In this document: piece by piece, positions 30,800-58,830 of the stretch
Position numbering within the stretch: the stretch's first letter is position 1
How the letters are laid out: each line of letters starts with the position of its first letter
Origin: a virus
Length of the DNA: 64,000 nt
Virus record (IMG/VR): IMGVR_UViG_3300013947_000002
Location: 1-64,000 of that record
Strand: one strand, 5' to 3'
The notes under the pieces: generated by a model
What the model was told of the DNA's origin: nothing
Databases searched by the model: none
Seen by the model: only the letters and a program-made list of their open reading frames with translations
Program-made: the position numbers and the translations under genes

Positions 30800-30938
30800 C
30801 CTCCTTTCTTTGTTTTATATTTTTGAGTGTTTTTATTTTCGGCTTTTGATTAAGTCTAGTTGGAACTTGGATTTCACTAAACCCTAATAGCGCCTCCACA
30901 ACAACATACCAACATAGCCGTTGCTTCATAGGTAAATA

Positions 30939-33639: not shown

Positions 33640-34441
33640 CGGCCAGCCCACACAGAGCCAGCCGTTCGTTTATTTCATTTATTCAGTTGTCAAGGTTCAT
33701 ACTGTGATACCCTATCGCTAGGGGCATACGGCGTTTCGCCTTTAGTTGAACAACAGTTCCCATTGAGTTGGGCTTATTGTAGATATGAGGCCGTAGCCTC
33801 CGTCACCTCCTTTCGTCAATTATGCTTCGGATAAACCAGTGGATAATTCAAGAGAAAGTGACCTCCCTTCGGATATTCATAGCCGCCAATGAGTAGTAGC
33901 GACAGGCAGTTTCAGTATGTGCCTAGATACAAGCATTTCGTCAAAGCTCTTACTTGTCAAGCGCCATCAAGCATCTAGCGCTACTCACTGTTATGTTTTA
34001 ATCACGGCTAAGACTCGCTTGGTGTTACCGCCAATTTGGTCTTATTTAATCCCTCATCCCATGCACACGGGAACCGCAGTGCGCCTCATCTTATTTCACC
34101 CACGCATGGCGCTATGTTGGGAAATATGGTGCAATGGGTCTTAGATGTCTGCTCATCTCGCCTTTGCCTACTTATAGCAGAATCACCTGATATTTCTTTG
34201 CCGCATATCAGAAGCGTTTTTGAATATACGGTTTTCATCGTTGCCTTATGGTATACCGCAAACCTTCGATAAGCGTCCACATATCACTCATAGGCAACCG
34301 AGCCATATGCTTCATACGTTCGTATAACACACCTGTTGCTATACGCCTATCATCAAGGATAGGATTTTCGATACTATATTGACGTAGCCCGCCACAGCCA
34401 ACGTCATGCTCGTATTAGGCTCCACTGAATTGTGGATTCAC
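33640..34441 (-). ncRNA. candidate ~0.8-kb structured ncRNA or long leader of the packaging/late operon
   Basis: No credible ORF on either strand. A consensus promoter lies at its 5' end. Contains tetraloop hairpins (33787-33800 GAGGC-UACG-GCCUC; 33710-33723 CCCUA-GCGA-UAGGG). G+C is well above that of other spacers. Confidence 0.5.
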
Positions 34442-36734: not shown

Positions 36735-37415
36735 TTAACATATCCCCCGTTCGGACAGGCGGGCTTCACGTGATGCAATGCGGCGCTGATTATCCGCTTT
36801 TTTGCCACACTCCTCAGAGCAATAATGCTGGCATACATCACGTGGTTTGAACCGCTTGCCGCAAATTGGGCAAATTGGATTAAGTGTGGCTGCATTGACT
36901 TTCAGATTCTCTACAATCTGCTTGCCAAAACAAGCCCACAACATTTTTTTATTGCTTGCTTTCTTAACCGTATATAGATACGCCACCAAGCTATTAACCA
37001 CAACATCCAGTGGCTCTTTGCTGTAATCCACAATATCTTGTGCTATGCACCGATACTTGTACAAATCGTCCTCATTGATATGCGGGTCATCGCCATAATC
37101 AAATCGGCGCTGATTCTTAATCCAGTAATTATACCGCTCAATGATTGGCGATTCTTCTCGCGTCGTATAATCAACTTGTTTGTTAATCAGCATTATCCAA
37201 TCAAACTTCCCAATTTTGTTATTATAGTGGATTCGGGAAGTAGGAATTTTGGCCGATATACGATTCATCGTGGAATTGTTGGGAGGCTCTACTTGGGTAT
37301 CCGGGTCTTTGTCTTTGGCGTATTGGAAGAAATTTGGCAATTTGGATTTAGTATATTTTTTTATAATATCTGAAATTTCTTTTGGCGGTTCCGATTTCCA
37401 CAATGTCTTTGCGAA
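36735..37415 (-). CDS. YonO-like single-subunit RNA polymerase, exon 2
   Basis: The track ORF starts at a TTG with no RBS. The frame is open 4 more codons upstream (FAKT). The C-terminus has a Cys4 zinc ribbon (CPICGKRF..CQHYCSEEC). Confidence 0.6.
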   Translation of the reverse strand, partial: FAKTLWKSEPPKEISDIIKKYTKSKLPNFFQYAKDKDPDTQVEPPNNSTMNRISAKIPTSRIHYNNKIGKFDWIMLINKQVDYTTREESPIIERYNYWIKNQRRFDYGDDPHINEDDLYKYRCIAQDIVDYSKEPLDVVVNSLVAYLYTVKKASNKKMLWACFGKQIVENLKVNAATLNPICPICGKRFKPRDVCQHYCSEECGKKADNQRRIASREARLSERGIC

Positions 37416-38426
37416 CCTTTAATACCGTCTCTTTCGAGATACTTTAACACCACTCTAAGCGGTCGGAGTAGACTATCTCTTCATCTCAATGAGATGGATG
37501 GCACTTCGCAAGTAGGAATTTCACCTACAAGCTACACTGAAAACAGTTAGTCGTTACAGCTTCAAATGTTTGATATTTTAATTTTCTTGATAACCAAATA
37601 TCCAATCCTTATGGGTTTTATTTCGTCCGTGTAACACTCTGTCAATACAGGAATAACTTAAATTGCGGTCTTTTGCAAAATTTCTAATATTCACAAATTC
37701 TACATATTCGCCAGTTTTTAAGTTTCTTCCCCAACACGCCTTTTCGTGCGCCCTAGATGAATTGTCATGCAGGGTGAGCCATCTACAATTTTCTGGACAA
37801 TAATCACCATGTGGATTTATTCTGTCGATAGTCAAATCTTCTTGATAACCATTGGATAACGCCCAATCTCTGAATGTTTCATAAGAATTTAACCACTCGT
37901 CACAAACCGTAATACCCTTTGCTCCATAATCCGCATAGCTACGAACGTTAGGATTATAGCAACGCGACTTCATATTTGACCACGTCCTATAAAGTTTGCT
38001 TCGATTGCCAACTATCGCACCACCAGACTCTCCATGACGAGTTTTGTTCTGATGAACTCTCTCAAGTCTTAAACATCCACAAGAACGAATTGGTTTATAC
38101 TGCTGGACTAATTTGTATTTAACAACCTCGACAATGTTGCCGCAATCACACTTGCATACTACAAGTAATTTACCTTCTTTATTTCTTTTGTCTGGTAATT
38201 CAACAACCGTCAATTTTTCAAATTTATCGCCTATCTTAATTTCATTTGATCTCACACCTAAACCTCCTTTCTTTTATGATAACATCAAACATTCGCTTGC
38301 CACGGTATTGCCATGCGCTCATGCGTTTAGGGTTTTACCGTTAGCACGGCATATGCCGCACACCCTACATTTGTAGGTTCACCATCATTCACATCATATG
38401 TCACCATATGAGTGGACTATCGTTTA
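37416..38426 (-). mobile_element. group I intron (HNH endonuclease-bearing) in the RNA polymerase gene
   Basis: 1011 nt. The exon 1 nucleotide before it is U and the last intron nucleotide is G. Splicing in phase 0 joins ..KNNQVID|FAKTLWK... The 5' part has hairpins and a 'CCGUGCUAAC' block like phage IA2 introns. Confidence 0.65.
37578..38255 (-). CDS. HNH homing endonuclease
   Basis: 'LYRTWSNMKSRCYNPNVRSYADYGAKGITVCDEW..F..W' and 'IDRINPHGDYCPENCRW', plus a C-terminal HTH-like 'NIRNFAKDRNLSYSCIDRVLHGR'. GTG start with an AGGAGG RBS. Confidence 0.8.
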   Translation of the reverse strand: MRSNEIKIGDKFEKLTVVELPDKRNKEGKLLVVCKCDCGNIVEVVKYKLVQQYKPIRSCGCLRLERVHQNKTRHGESGGAIVGNRSKLYRTWSNMKSRCYNPNVRSYADYGAKGITVCDEWLNSYETFRDWALSNGYQEDLTIDRINPHGDYCPENCRWLTLHDNSSRAHEKACWGRNLKTGEYVEFVNIRNFAKDRNLSYSCIDRVLHGRNKTHKDWIFGYQEN

Positions 38427-40325
38427 ATCTATAACTTGATTATTCTTCATTGTCAACCAAGCGATAACCTTGATTTGTTCCTCCGTCATCTTACCGCCAT
38501 TAGCGTTTTTTACCTTCGAAATTGCATTACTGATAGGGCCGATTGAGCCGCCTGTATATGCTGTACTTACACCTTCATATAGCCTGTCTGCGTCGATAAT
38601 ACCACCACGAGCTTTTTTAAGGTCATATGACAGCGGAACAATCCCTTGCATATTGCGCTTTGCTACAGTTGTTAGCGTCTTATCCTTGACAACTAAAGAA
38701 ATATCTCCGTCAAAATCTTGCTGCAAGATACGGCTAATCATGTCATGACAACTAAAATAAACACACTTTGTCCCACCCAACCATTTATCAGTCAATTCAT
38801 TTCGCTTGTTGACACGAACGGCGTGTTCTTGGTATAGGTGCGGACTTCTCAGACAATCAAGCTCGTCGCCATCCTTGAATTGATTAGTATATACTTCACC
38901 ATTCTCAAGTAATCCAGTTGGGAATTGTTCACCCTTGAATAACCACTCACAGAACGCCACAGGGTCAGGTGAGATGAACAAGTATTTGCCATTGATTCTC
39001 AATCTACCGCCTTTTGCTTGTTTGACAAGACTTTTTTTAGTTTGCTTTAATATTTCCCGATTGTAAACATCCTTGAATAATTCTGGATAAATCGTCAACG
39101 CCTCTTGCATGGCTGTTTTTGTCTGATTATACTCAGTTGCCCCAAGCAATCTCATCGTTGTTTGATAGTCACGCCCAACACTGTCAATTTCATCTACTGT
39201 CTTCGCGATAAGCCGCTCAATTTCATTGTCGGTCATATCGCTCAATGATTGTAGCATCTGATAATTGATTCGAGCCTTTGGGATATAATCCTCCTCGACT
39301 TTGCAGCAACCGAAGTGACAACCATAACTCTTAAAGTTCGACTTGTAGCAGAACCAGCTAGGGTAGAATTTGTACAGCTTAAACATTGATTTCGTTAGGA
39401 TATACTGAATATCATCTTCAATGATTTTCCATTCCTTTCCATATATATCCGTAACAGACCAATCATCAGCGGAACAATATTCTTTGAGCCATCCTCTAAA
39501 ATCAAAGTAGGACACCAACCCCTTTATCCACGGGCCGCGCACGATTTGCGTCTTGAATCCGGGCTTACAACACATGCCCCACCCGTCAGTTTCAGCTATA
39601 ACCGTCTCTGATACTTTGCGCGTAATGCTATAATCTGTATAATCAATAAAGTCCGACTCGGCAGTTACCGGCATCTCAAAATCATCCACCACTATACACC
39701 GGTCTATATCAAAATCGTCCATTCTGTCTGTTGCAGATGCCATAAGGCTCTTATAGCTCAACAGCTTGTTTTCATTCATACCGCCCTGAGCGTTAATTGA
39801 ATCGATGGTTAATCCGCACATGAGCGTCTGCTCAACTTCATTATAGTCTTTTTCCCTAACGGCCATAAACCGCTTTGTGCGTATCATGCCAGCGCCGCAT
39901 GAGTAGAAAATGTAATGCTCGCCTTTGTAATTGAAACCATTGTGAATGATGCTATTAAGAATCTCAAAAAAGAACACGTTGACAATGATTATTTTGTCGC
40001 TACGCTCGAACGTCTTGATTCCTAGACTTCGAGTCAACTCAGAACAGAATAGATTGATGATTGTCTTGTCTTTTACTGCGTCTGGATTGAGTTCTCTAGT
40101 AATATTATCTTCGAGAGATTTTTTAAGCAATTTGACAAGTTCGTCTTTATGCTTTTTAATAACACGATTGATAGATGAGACACGCCATTTGCGATTTTGC
40201 CCATCTTTTTCTCGCATACGCAATGTATATAATTTAACAAGACGATTATGAATGGCTTGTTCATCCGATGTATAGAAAGCATCTGTATTGATGGAGGGGA
40301 TGAAGCAAAACTCTGTTAATGGCAC
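38427..40325 (-). CDS. YonO-like single-subunit RNA polymerase, exon 1
   Basis: 'LDCLRSPHLYQEHAV' and 'QQDFDGDISLVV', the D.DGD metal-binding motif of two-barrel RNAPs and RdRP-like enzymes. GTG start with an AGAGGTGA RBS. Confidence 0.7.
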
Positions 40326-41509: not shown

Positions 41510-41722
41510 ATGCCACGAACAAAGAAAATTAACCCGCGCGTCCAATATGGCGACACTAGCTGGATTGTCAATGATTGCGGCAATGGGCAATTCGAGCTGT
41601 ATAATACCAGCACCAAACAAATTCCAGCAAAGAGTAATAATCCACTGGATTTTGATAAATATATTGACAAAATTTTTGGTAAGGAGGCGGCTAAGAATGT
41701 TCGAGATTTTCAAGCTGAATAA
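41510..41722 (+). CDS. hypothetical small early protein
   Basis: 70 aa with a GAGGTGA RBS. First ORF after the early promoter. Confidence 0.6.
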   Translation: MPRTKKINPRVQYGDTSWIVNDCGNGQFELYNTSTKQIPAKSNNPLDFDKYIDKIFGKEAAKNVRDFQAE

Positions 41723-42857
41723 GAAGAAGAAAGAGCTTGAAGGGCAGATTTCCAAATTAGAATCAACTATTGCAGAGCAACAAGAGAATATTTCTTACAC
41801 ACAGCTCAACATCGATATGTTGCACAAAGAAGAAAAGAAAGCACAATCTGCCGCGCTTCAAGAACAGAACAACTTAGATATTCTTGAAAACAAAATCCAC
41901 GCTATCGAAGAAATGCAGGATTATAACATCCCATATTATCAGGATTCGCTTGATGAACTTGAACATCGCCGCTATGAACTACAGAGCAAGATTGAATTGG
42001 CTGTGAATACTGGTCTGTATCGCATCGAACAAGGATATACGCTCAATGGCTCTGACAGGCGCGGCAAGGAAATGCAGGACGTATATGGGCGAGGACTGGT
42101 TTGCAGTTGCAACGCTTATATTGACAGCAAAGAAAAATCGCTGACAACAGGCAATATTGCTAAAAGCAAAGAATTGATTAAGAATAAATTTAATTCTTAT
42201 CAGTCCAAAGCCGGTAAGGTCGGCTTGGCGCTTAATGCTGAATATGTCAAGGCGCGACTTGATATGTTTGATGTCAATTTGGCCATCAAGGTTAAAAAGA
42301 AGGAAGAAGCAGCTAAGATTAGAGAAGAAAAGCGGCGGCTTAGAGAGCAAGAGCAATTGTTGGCTGATATTGCTAGAGAACGCGCCAAGCTGATTGAAGA
42401 AAAGAAAGCAATGAATATTGCATTTAGCAAGGCATTGACAGATGATGAGCGCAATGAGATTAAGGCTCAGCTTGCTAGTATTGATAAGCGACTTGATTCT
42501 ATTGCATATCGTGAAGCACATAGTAAAGCTGGTTGGCTATATGTTATTAGCTCGCCCAGCTTGCCCGGATTGACCAAAATCGGTTGCACGCGGAGATTGG
42601 TACCAATGGTGCGCGTGAAAGAATTATCAAGTTCCTCGCTCCCGTCACCATTTGTAGCTCATTGCTTTGTATTTAGTGATGATTGCTTTGAGCTTGAATC
42701 GCAGATGCACAAATATTTTGACAAAGAGCGAGTCAATCCTGATAGAGAATTTTTCCGCATTGAGCCGAAAGAGGCCATTGAGGTGCTAAGAGAAATTTTT
42801 GACGTTGATGTCCATTTTGTAGATGAAGATTGTGAAGATAATGAGGAGGATAAATAA
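41697..42857 (+). CDS. DUF4041-like coiled-coil protein with C-terminal T5orf172 (GIY-YIG-related) domain
   Basis: Start at ATG 41697 with an AAGGAGG RBS; the track's longer N-terminus is rejected. C-terminus: 'GWLYVISSPSLPGLTKIGCTRRLVPMVRVKELSSSSLPSPF...LESQMHKYFDKERVNPDREFFRI'. Confidence 0.65.
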   Translation: MFEIFKLNKKKKELEGQISKLESTIAEQQENISYTQLNIDMLHKEEKKAQSAALQEQNNLDILENKIHAIEEMQDYNIPYYQDSLDELEHRRYELQSKIELAVNTGLYRIEQGYTLNGSDRRGKEMQDVYGRGLVCSCNAYIDSKEKSLTTGNIAKSKELIKNKFNSYQSKAGKVGLALNAEYVKARLDMFDVNLAIKVKKKEEAAKIREEKRRLREQEQLLADIARERAKLIEEKKAMNIAFSKALTDDERNEIKAQLASIDKRLDSIAYREAHSKAGWLYVISSPSLPGLTKIGCTRRLVPMVRVKELSSSSLPSPFVAHCFVFSDDCFELESQMHKYFDKERVNPDREFFRIEPKEAIEVLREIFDVDVHFVDEDCEDNEEDK

Positions 42858-57827: not shown

Positions 57828-58830
57828 TGTAAAGATGATGGTGCTACGAAGCCCACAGAGGACACTATCCATGGAGTGCCGAGCTGGGGAATACAGGAGC
57901 AGTAGTAAATGGAGTGAGATGAACAGCCATCATTATATGCCATATGAGGTCTTGAATGCGAATGAGCCAATGGCTGAAATTGCTCATCCAGATTTGGAGT
58001 AGTATTCAAGATATAACCTTAGCATTGCTCGTGCGAGAGGCAAGCCAAGCTAACTGCATATCCTACGTGGAATGTCTGTCTTGGATGGAAAAGAGCGAAT
58101 TAGGGAACGTGCGTGAGATAAATGAGAGAAGCATAAAAGCGGGTCACAGTCGTGTGAAAGACCGTAATGCCAAGTAGGGCGCACCAGTCAATCTGTTCGG
58201 CATAATAAAGGGATTGGGGTTGACGATTATAGAATGGCACATCGGAAAGACGATGATAATATCCGACCGGATTTGAAGATAACCGTCAAATCTATATCAC
58301 GCCTGCACTGGGGTCTGCGCAGAGTTTGAGAAGCGGCAGATACAGACTAGAGAATTGGGGTCGCGCCCAATCGTGCCACGTTAGCATCCATGCAAAAACG
58401 TAACGTCGAAGGTGATATAAGGATGTTATGTAAACAGCATTCACGAGCCGATGCTAGAAGTAGCTATGAGGTAGGAAGTCGGCTTGAGATTGAATATGGA
58501 AGTGTAAGCTAACTGGATAAACCTCGCCAATTTGGTGAGATTGCAAGTTCGATTCTTGTCACTTCTATTCCCCCACATCCATCACGCTTCTGTTTAGCAT
58601 TGCAAGCGTACCACGATGGATGTATAGAAAAGTCTAAAATCCTAGCTTTGTAAGGCTGAACACAAGAATTGGTCACTTGTGAACGGTCTAGTTTATAAGT
58701 TATAATGCTAGTTGCCGAATAGTTGAAAGCTGACCACCTGACGCTATGAGGCAGCGCTCGCCACACTCCCGATTTTAAGATGGTTGCGCAACTGTAAATT
58801 CAATTTAGCCTGAATTTGTAAGGAGTGTGG
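57828..58830 (+). ncRNA. candidate ~1-kb highly structured ncRNA (GOLLD/ROOL-like class or novel)
   Basis: No credible ORF. Long-range helices: 57834-41/57927-34; 58576-83/58615-22 with a nested ACGCTT/AAGCGT; 58761-69/58822-30. Contains an embedded tRNA-shaped module. Preceded by a strong promoter. Confidence 0.55.
58498..58567 (+). other. degenerate tRNA-like module (possible attP core or RNA domain)
   Basis: Acceptor GGAAGTG/CACTTCT (7 bp). T arm GCAAG-TTCGATT-CTTGT. Anticodon-like stem CTCGC/GTGAG. No D stem, no U33 and no CCA. Confidence 0.4.

Follow-up and report, generated by a model that had tools for sequence, protein, structure and literature searches.

How a phage RNA polymerase gene comes to lie in two pieces is the question raised by the first 64,000 nucleotides of the uncultured virus record IMGVR_UViG_3300013947_000002 (hereafter the window), where two minus-strand open reading frames (ORFs) with similarity to YonO, the RNA polymerase of phage SPbeta, flank an insert with an ORF of its own. 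We consider that 36735-40325 (minus strand, as are all features of this locus) is very probably a single gene for a YonO-type single-subunit, two-barrel DNA-dependent RNA polymerase, interrupted by a mobile group I intron. The phage is SPbeta-like and known from human-gut metagenomes. An earlier reading of the letters (the original prediction) had proposed a group I intron with an HNH homing endonuclease gene at this place; the comparative, covariation and structural evidence agree with it and with one another, and the predicted junction is exact.

The larger ORF (38424..40325) encodes 633 aa, contains QQDFDGDISLVV and ends ..KNNQVID before its stop codon. The smaller one is listed as 222 aa (36735..37403) starting at an internal TTG, and its frame is open back to 37415, where it reads FAKTLWK. 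Excision of the 1011 nt from 37416 to 38426 fuses 38427-40325 with 36735-37415 in phase 0, giving a product of 859 aa with the junction ...NNQVID/FAKTLWK (here and below a stroke marks the junction) between codons D633 and F634; the letters of the joined exons are ..CAAGTTATAGAT/TTCGCAAAGACA. The last base of exon 1 is a U (38427), the last base of the intron is a G (37416), and the first intron codon is UAA, an in-frame stop. The original prediction had named the 633-aa ORF with its catalytic motif, the FAKTLWK frame, the phase-0 join and the bordering U and G; each is present, the second frame reaches back to 37415, and intron-less homologues read across the join.

The joined protein matches phrog_8308 in one unbroken alignment (residues 8-841 to profile positions 7-844 of 847, E 1.8e-230) and is 40% identical to SPbeta YonO across 99% of its length (tblastn). 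SPbeta YonO is uninterrupted at the site (NNFTIDFAKTLF, within ..MENNFTIDFAKTLFMP..), the window counterpart being ..MKNNQVID/FAKTLWKS... A collection of 5.8 billion metagenomic proteins contains about 30 homologue clusters (848-870 aa, 73-93% identity, 99-100% coverage of the joined protein) that read AWLTMKNNQ[VI]ID[FY]AKTLWK straight across the junction, and five clusters of 622-633-aa proteins that stop exactly at ..NNQ[VI]ID; the closest relatives (93%) are without the intron. At the DNA level, intron-less alleles (L012-L014) share 82% identity with the joined exons and are continuous across the site, which in L012 reads AATCAAATTATTGAT/TTTGCGAAAACG. The last codon before the site is GAC in the intron-less L013 and L014 and GAU in all intron-bearing alleles. 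IDFAKT, which the original prediction likened to the 'AVDFxKTG'-type motif of RdRP-like polymerases and which may correspond to it, is contiguous and nearly invariant among YonO homologues, and in homologue P0086 it lies inside the stretch matched by Pfam RdRP (PF05183). Because the phrog_8308 match is a single stretch and the intron-less homologues read through, the arrangement is not one of chance. A scan of GTDB with a single protein query gave no match, and a scan with a profile found many prophage homologues, the closest on short contigs of metagenome-assembled genomes (MAGs) binned to incompatible taxa. On three GTDB MAG contigs (L138, L149 and L163; bins Gastranaerophilales and 'Bacilli') the polymerase match spans 3.4-3.5 kb rather than ~2.6 kb, and for this reason there are probably further intron-bearing yonO alleles among them.

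Residues D537, D539, G540 and D541 (DFDGD) are invariant in an alignment of 32 homologues (A2), and catalysis by SPbeta YonO, the DNA-dependent RNA polymerase for the phage late operon, depends on the aspartate triad (PMC5467207). An AlphaFold model of the joined protein (predicted local distance difference test, pLDDT, 83; predicted template modelling score, pTM, 0.77) was compared with the PDB using Foldseek, and the top 21 matches are all plant RDR2 or fungal QDE-1 (E 1e-17 to 1e-10, TM 0.42-0.54), the next match having E 0.46. The structure prediction that had been proposed for the spliced protein thus gives a model with the fold of the RNA-dependent RNA polymerase (RdRP)/two-barrel superfamily. 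Sequence searches of the PDB, whether by the joined protein or by the profile of its family, returned no polymerase, so that the link to RdRP rests on the fold comparison and on the Pfam matches of homologues, 24 of the 32 aligned sequences scoring above the PF05183 cut-off. In the model the junction falls within a long predicted helix (residues 615-637), some 95 residues past the catalytic loop. The neighbouring genes are in the SPbeta order (Bro-N, yonO, HU-like, YonJ-like metallophosphatase, TerL, the large terminase), as in the relatives, and yonO stands where the late region begins.

At this one site there are alleles without the intron, with an ORF-less intron and with an ORF-containing one. 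Introns of ~1010 nt with the same 225-aa HNH ORF are found in the window and in L005-L009, and a natural 290-nt intron lacking any ORF is present in L010 and L011, that of L010 being 87% identical to the window ribozyme core. The same site is occupied in the Bacillus phages phi3T, Goe14 and BUCT083, where exon 1 ends ..NNFTID followed by a stop (GAU/UAAAUUUAUAGUC) and exon 2 begins FAKTLFMP; the exon letters flanking the phi3T insert are ..ACTATCGAT and TTCGCAAAAACC. The phi3T insert is 400 nt and ORF-less, and those of Goe14 and BUCT083 are 1290 nt; their 300-aa ORF, which BUCT083 annotates as a GIY-YIG nuclease, is located in the P5 region and not in P6a. The Bacillus ribozyme is homologous to that of the window, with compensatory changes in P2, P3, P4, P6, P7 and P8. 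An insert is present at the site in 15 of 25 SPbeta-like phage records; the exact position was verified for Goe14, phi3T and BUCT083, and is deduced for the other records from the span of two-piece tblastn matches. The pieces are labelled yonO_1, hypothetical and yonO_2, or as two hypothetical proteins, and none of the records annotates an intron. A literature search found no described yonO intron, although most subscription journals lay outside that search and the absence is unproven; an intron in a yonO-type gene seems not to have been described before.

Homologous introns at the same yonO site thus carry a GIY-YIG ORF in the P5 region (L001, which is Goe14, and L004, which is BUCT083) or an HNH ORF in P6a (the window), and ORF-less forms occur in phi3T, L010, L026 and L055. 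The presence of different nuclease types in different loops of homologous introns, together with the ORF-less forms, argues that the nuclease genes invaded the ribozyme independently. A second intron site is evident in L134 (2372-5951), in which exon 1 ends ..SRILQFD followed by a stop (CGAT/TAGTTAGTC..), the insert contains a 212-aa HNH_3 ORF, and exon 2 runs from CDGDKTLV; P0063 (537 aa, 82% identical to the window protein) likewise ends ..LQFD. Because L134 and P0063 break within the catalytic motif, yonO genes have at least two intron sites, within D/xDGD and at ID/FAKT.

The intron structure was drawn on the L010 intron from a reading of the window, L005, L008, L010 and phi3T copies, and pairing was counted on an alignment of 16 introns. 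Standard pairs occupy 92.6% of cells, compared with 33-47% after displacement of the 3' partner by 1-3 columns, and compensatory changes on both sides are seen in 58 of 76 pairs; none of 500 shuffles reached any of the observed pairing measures. By helix, P3, P4 and P9 are paired in 100% of cells, P7 in 92.5% and the four outer pairs of P8 in 96.9%, and compensatory changes are seen in P2, P6, P7.1, P7.2, P8, P9a and P9b. The related introns support P2 to P9 including the P3/P7 pseudoknot, and all core helices are intact in the window copy (Table 1). Judged by this covariation the insert is a group I intron, and the manual fold of P1 to P9 suggested at the outset succeeds for the core helices, with a short P1.

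Canonical group I introns have a J3/4 of only 2-3 nt between P3 and P4. A fit of the P3-P4 region to that layout was rejected, the covariation favouring two extra hairpins instead. These hairpins (38346-38377) lie within a family-wide motif, GUGAACC..AAAU..GGGUGU-hairpin-GCUAAC, that is conserved across alignment A1 and is also present in 75 of 119 viral loci with the 3' core. A search with the 3'-core motif found at least 119 viral contigs, from which eleven full-length ORF-less relatives were extracted. L016 (6669-7345) and L130 (4675-5348) each have two members of the intron family head to tail with a gap of no more than ~20 nt, which implies a very short exon between two introns in a viral gene.

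Table 1. Features of the interrupted yonO-like gene, its intron and the intron-encoded endonuclease gene (window coordinates)
Feature	Position	Strand	Remarks
Exon 1, yonO-like RNA polymerase gene	38427..40325	-	633 codons; GTG start; upstream GAGGTG ribosome-binding site; ends ...NNQVID
Catalytic aspartate motif DFDGD codons (residues 537-541)	38703..38717	-	invariant in A2; triad proven in SPbeta YonO (PMC5467207)
Group I intron (predicted)	37416..38426	-	1011 nt; UAA at start, G 37416 at end
Exon 2, yonO-like gene	36735..37415	-	226 codons + stop; starts FAKTLWK; Cys-rich zinc-ribbon-like tail at end
5' ribozyme segment	38284..38426	-	coordinates from structure reading; covariation
P1 3' strand/internal guide UAGUC	38414-38418	-	in 5' ribozyme segment
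P2	38405-38411 / 38394-38400	-	covariation
P3 5' strand	38380-38386	-	covariation
Two extra hairpins between P3 5' strand and P4	38364-38377, 38346-38359	-	covariation
P4	38336-38341 / 38302-38307	-	covariation
P5/P5a	listed between P4 and P6, in 5' ribozyme segment	-	
P6	5' strand 38299-38301; 3' strand 37558-37560	-	covariation
P6a	5' strand 38284-38293; 3' strand 37565-37574	-	10 bp; closes 709-nt loop
Ribosome-binding site AAAGGAGG of intron ORF	38263..38270	-	conserved in L005 and L008
HNH-family homing endonuclease gene (predicted)	37578..38255	-	225 aa; GTG start; entirely within P6a terminal loop; PHROG 374
3' ribozyme segment	37416..37574	-	~87% identical to unannotated stretches of SPO1-like Bacillus phages
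J6/7 GUAAC	between P6 3' strand and P7 5' strand	-	in 3' ribozyme segment
P7	5' strand 37548-37552; 3' strand 37471-37475	-	covariation
P7.1	37536-37547	-	covariation
P7.2, loop GUGAAAUUC	37508-37532	-	covariation
P3 3' strand	37497-37503	-	covariation
P8	37482-37496	-	covariation
J8/7 AAGAGA	between P8 and P7 3' strand	-	in 3' ribozyme segment
P9/P9a/P9b	37425-37466	-	covariation
Terminal G (omega G)	37416	-	fixed by reading frame; ..AAGG / ..AAAG conserved in all alleles

The 709-nt loop holds the whole endonuclease gene and its ribosome-binding site, and the non-coding flanks of the ORF are 171 and 162 nt. As had been predicted, the insert encodes a putative HNH homing endonuclease with its own ribosome-binding site (AAAGGAGG): the 225-aa product matches PHROG 374, 3377 and 2081, all 'HNH endonuclease' (E 1e-57 to 1e-36; PHROG 374, E 1.2e-57), and has a C-terminal I-HmuI NUMOD-like domain that scores below the Pfam cut-off (21.6 vs 27 bits). 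A PDB sequence search with this ORF found no relative. Of its relatives, spread over 1418 phage records, several lie next to or within DNA polymerase genes. The three diverged copies in the window, L005 and L008 are each 225 aa with 74-76% identical DNA, synonymous codon differences outnumber non-synonymous ones, and the upstream AAAGGAGG site is conserved; by this comparison the endonuclease gene shows the pattern of a gene under selection.

Several observations weigh against the interpretation of this locus as a spliced polymerase gene. At the gathering threshold Rfam finds no intron in the whole window, and in a relaxed scan only the 3' half of the window intron aligned (15.5 bits), with the canonical J8/7-P7 sequence AGAUAGUC, the match being partial because the 709-nt ORF loop splits the Rfam model. 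The ORF-less 290-nt intron of L010 aligns to the full RF00028 (Intron_gpI) model (positions 1-253, 32 bits, E 1.2e-6) and the phi3T intron scores 19.7 bits when scanned alone; a relaxed scan of 25 kb of multiple loci missed the latter, the filters being stricter with more sequence. No copy attains the RF00028 gathering score of 50 bits, so that the Rfam check put forward in the original prediction did not identify the intron at that score, and the evidence for the ribozyme comes from covariation instead. P1 is short, with exon GAU and intron UA paired with UAGUC, U 38427 in a wobble with G10 of this guide, and an A.C mismatch at exon position -4; P10 has at most 3 bp. Of the protein models, none of those for HNH in Pfam recognises the intron ORF at E <= 1, and only the PHROG HNH families do; Pfam RdRP (PF05183) has no match to the window protein, nor to SPbeta YonO. 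Finally, the case for splicing is drawn from DNA and not from RNA.

The guide UAGUCCAC at 38414-38418 pairs with just three yonO exon bases. The same guide, GUCCG, pairs perfectly with the CGGAU exons of unrelated intron-family members in other genes (L016 and L084; L130 was also compared), and because the guide fits the ..GCGGAU exons of those genes perfectly, the sequences suggest that the intron lineage moved into yonO from another target.

The weak P1, with its three exon base pairs and mismatch at -4, and the Rfam scores under threshold are also what might be seen if the intron had decayed and no longer spliced, leaving this copy of yonO as a pseudogene, or if the phage were defective. 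We regard this as very improbable, since every core helix is intact in the window, both exons are long and open in four intron-bearing lineages that are ~20-25% apart in DNA with many synonymous differences, the endonuclease ORF is intact, and the viable laboratory phage phi3T has a related intron at the same site. It is from the intact helices, the conserved open exons and the example of phi3T that we infer splicing of the window intron.

The original prediction further suggested that splicing could act as a timing device, a regulatory gate on late transcription beyond selfish insertion. As for context, yonO heads the late region, YonO drives the SPbeta late genes (PMC5467207), and a delay in YonO could in principle delay late transcription. 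Nothing in the sequence speaks for it, however, and the idea is unsupported because close relatives lack the intron: it is present or absent among relatives with YonO 77-93% identical and among SPbeta-like Bacillus phages, and a regulator on which the phage depended would not be missing from its sister phages. A timing role is accordingly very doubtful, and the pattern of presence and absence looks like that of a selfish element.

It is also conceivable that the gene is split but unspliced, a free-standing endonuclease gene having landed in yonO, with the halves translated separately and assembled as a two-chain polymerase; the Aeromonas phage nrdA gene split by mobE offers a precedent (PMC3045599). 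The in-frame TTG at 37403, 12 nt past AAAGG, could in principle start exon 2, and our preferred reading relies on sequence rather than RNA. Nonetheless, the ORF flanks form a covariation-supported group I core, the inserts of L010 and phi3T are without any endonuclease gene, the TTG encodes the Leu of KTLWK and has CTC in its place in L008, so that the start codon is not conserved, and the break lies inside the predicted continuous helix of residues 615-637; such an arrangement is exceedingly unlikely. An intein is ruled out by the in-frame stop codons, a group II intron by the lack of a match and the wrong structure, and translational bypass by the insert being a folded ribozyme with its own gene.

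For a self-splicing group I intron in a single polymerase gene we propose the following course of events. The gene would be transcribed as one precursor, on which the UAA at the first intron codon would halt ribosomes at the 5' splice site. The intron would fold with exon U 38427 paired to guide G10 in the short P1, guanosine would attack the 5' splice site, and the terminal G 37416 would define the 3' splice site, the ligated exons forming the mRNA for the 859-aa polymerase. This enzyme, if it acts as SPbeta YonO does, would then transcribe the late operon of structural and lysis genes, which begins immediately downstream. The intron ORF would give rise to an I-HmuI-like HNH nuclease that nicks or cuts intron-less yonO of co-infecting relatives near the IDFAKT codons, and repair of the cut allele would copy the intron in (homing).

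A more speculative extension is that the nuclease could be a weapon between co-infecting SPbeta-like phages, cutting a competitor's intron-less yonO and so blocking its late transcription. We put this forward tentatively and think it rather unlikely, the model being gp210 of PhiPA3 acting against PhiKZ (PMC11620839). If it were true, yonO would be a recurrent battleground; in this one gene family introns occupy at least two sites, and their nucleases are of two types (HNH and GIY-YIG).

Several other features are present near this locus. Two drum RNA motifs (Rfam RF02958) at 30822-30934 and 34224-34320 (both minus strand; 51.5 and 43.3 bits, cut-off 43) sit between genes of the late operon, on the downstream side of yonO, and in Goe14 a skipping-rope RNA is annotated right behind HU, the gene next after yonO. 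Transcripts driven by YonO may have these structured RNAs as their leaders. On the far side of the Bro-N gene, as the second gene upstream from yonO, a divergent gene (41547-42857, plus strand) encodes a 436-aa protein with a T5orf172/MUG113 (GIY-YIG-like) domain, and may be another nuclease or mobile element. Its counterparts in L012 and L134 are also matched by SNIPE, with a weak match in L013 and L014. A tRNA-like gene is located at 58498-58567 (plus strand; 30.9 bits, Rfam cut-off 29).

At present the yonO-type genes of SPbeta-like phages, among them the laboratory phage phi3T and many phages from gut metagenomes, are recorded as gene pairs or hypothetical fragments, and recognising the intron restores a single polymerase of 840-860 aa. 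Phages phi3T, Goe11 and Goe14 in B. subtilis provide a testable system for the need for splicing in late transcription and for nuclease-mediated exclusion between related prophages. The insertion sites further point to IDFAKT and DxDGD as the DNA under the tightest constraint within this polymerase family, whose members are thought to resemble an ancestral RNA polymerase.

The nearest known counterparts are the split yonO genes of the Bacillus phages phi3T, vB_BsuS-Goe11 and Goe14, BUCT083, SPR and SPbetaL3-L7, which belong to the same gene family (40% identity) and share with the window the codon boundary (..ID/FAKTL), the intron start (GAU/UAA..UAGUC) and the intron end (GGUAUNAAAG). They differ in that the introns of the Bacillus phages either have no ORF (400 nt) or contain the 300-aa GIY-YIG gene in the P5 region, whereas the window has its HNH gene in P6a, and in that they are B. 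subtilis prophages, whereas the window matches uncultured contigs of ~84-100 kb from human-gut metagenomes.

A well-characterised parallel is PhiPA3 gp210, an I-HmuI-like HNH endonuclease encoded in a group I intron that interrupts gp211/209, a gene for a subunit of the virion RNA polymerase; by nicking the PhiKZ homologue of that gene, the endonuclease puts PhiPA3 at a competitive advantage (Birkholz et al. 2024, PMC11620839). As is predicted for the window, a highly conserved motif of the catalytic region in a phage RNA polymerase gene of the two-barrel type is broken by a group I intron with an I-HmuI-like HNH gene. The PhiPA3 host gene, however, encodes a multisubunit beta'-like subunit in a jumbo Pseudomonas phage, and its site borders the catalytic aspartates, whereas the window site is ~95 residues downstream (IDFAKT); the intron of L134, a relative of the window gene, lies within D/CDGD and so parallels the gp210 site. 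Nicking and competitive interference have been demonstrated for gp210, whereas the window nuclease is a prediction from sequence.

The T4 td intron with I-TevI is likewise a phage group IA intron, in which a stop codon in frame directly follows the 5' splice site and the endonuclease ORF is looped from P6a, although its enzyme is of the GIY-YIG rather than the HNH type and it is without the two extra hairpins between P3 and P4. The DNA polymerase intron of SPO1 and SP82 carries I-HmuI and I-HmuII, and the predicted C-terminal domain of the putative window HNH protein is of the I-HmuI type. The introns of SPO1/SP82 and of bnrdE and bnrdF are, compared by description, group IA-type Bacillus-phage introns with P7.1 and P7.2 like that of the window, but their host genes differ. 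The B. thuringiensis nrdF intron is described as an IA intron with P7.1 and P7.2, and the SPbeta bnrdE and bnrdF introns are mentioned in PMC8270828. Homing introns in conserved motifs of essential phage genes are thus classical and well established, and the present case is in that sense unsurprising; the original prediction overstated it as unusual, given that the same site is split in phi3T, Goe14 and BUCT083 and that the comparable PhiPA3 intron was already characterised (PMC11620839). What is new here is the host gene family, together with an intron that is unannotated even in model phages.

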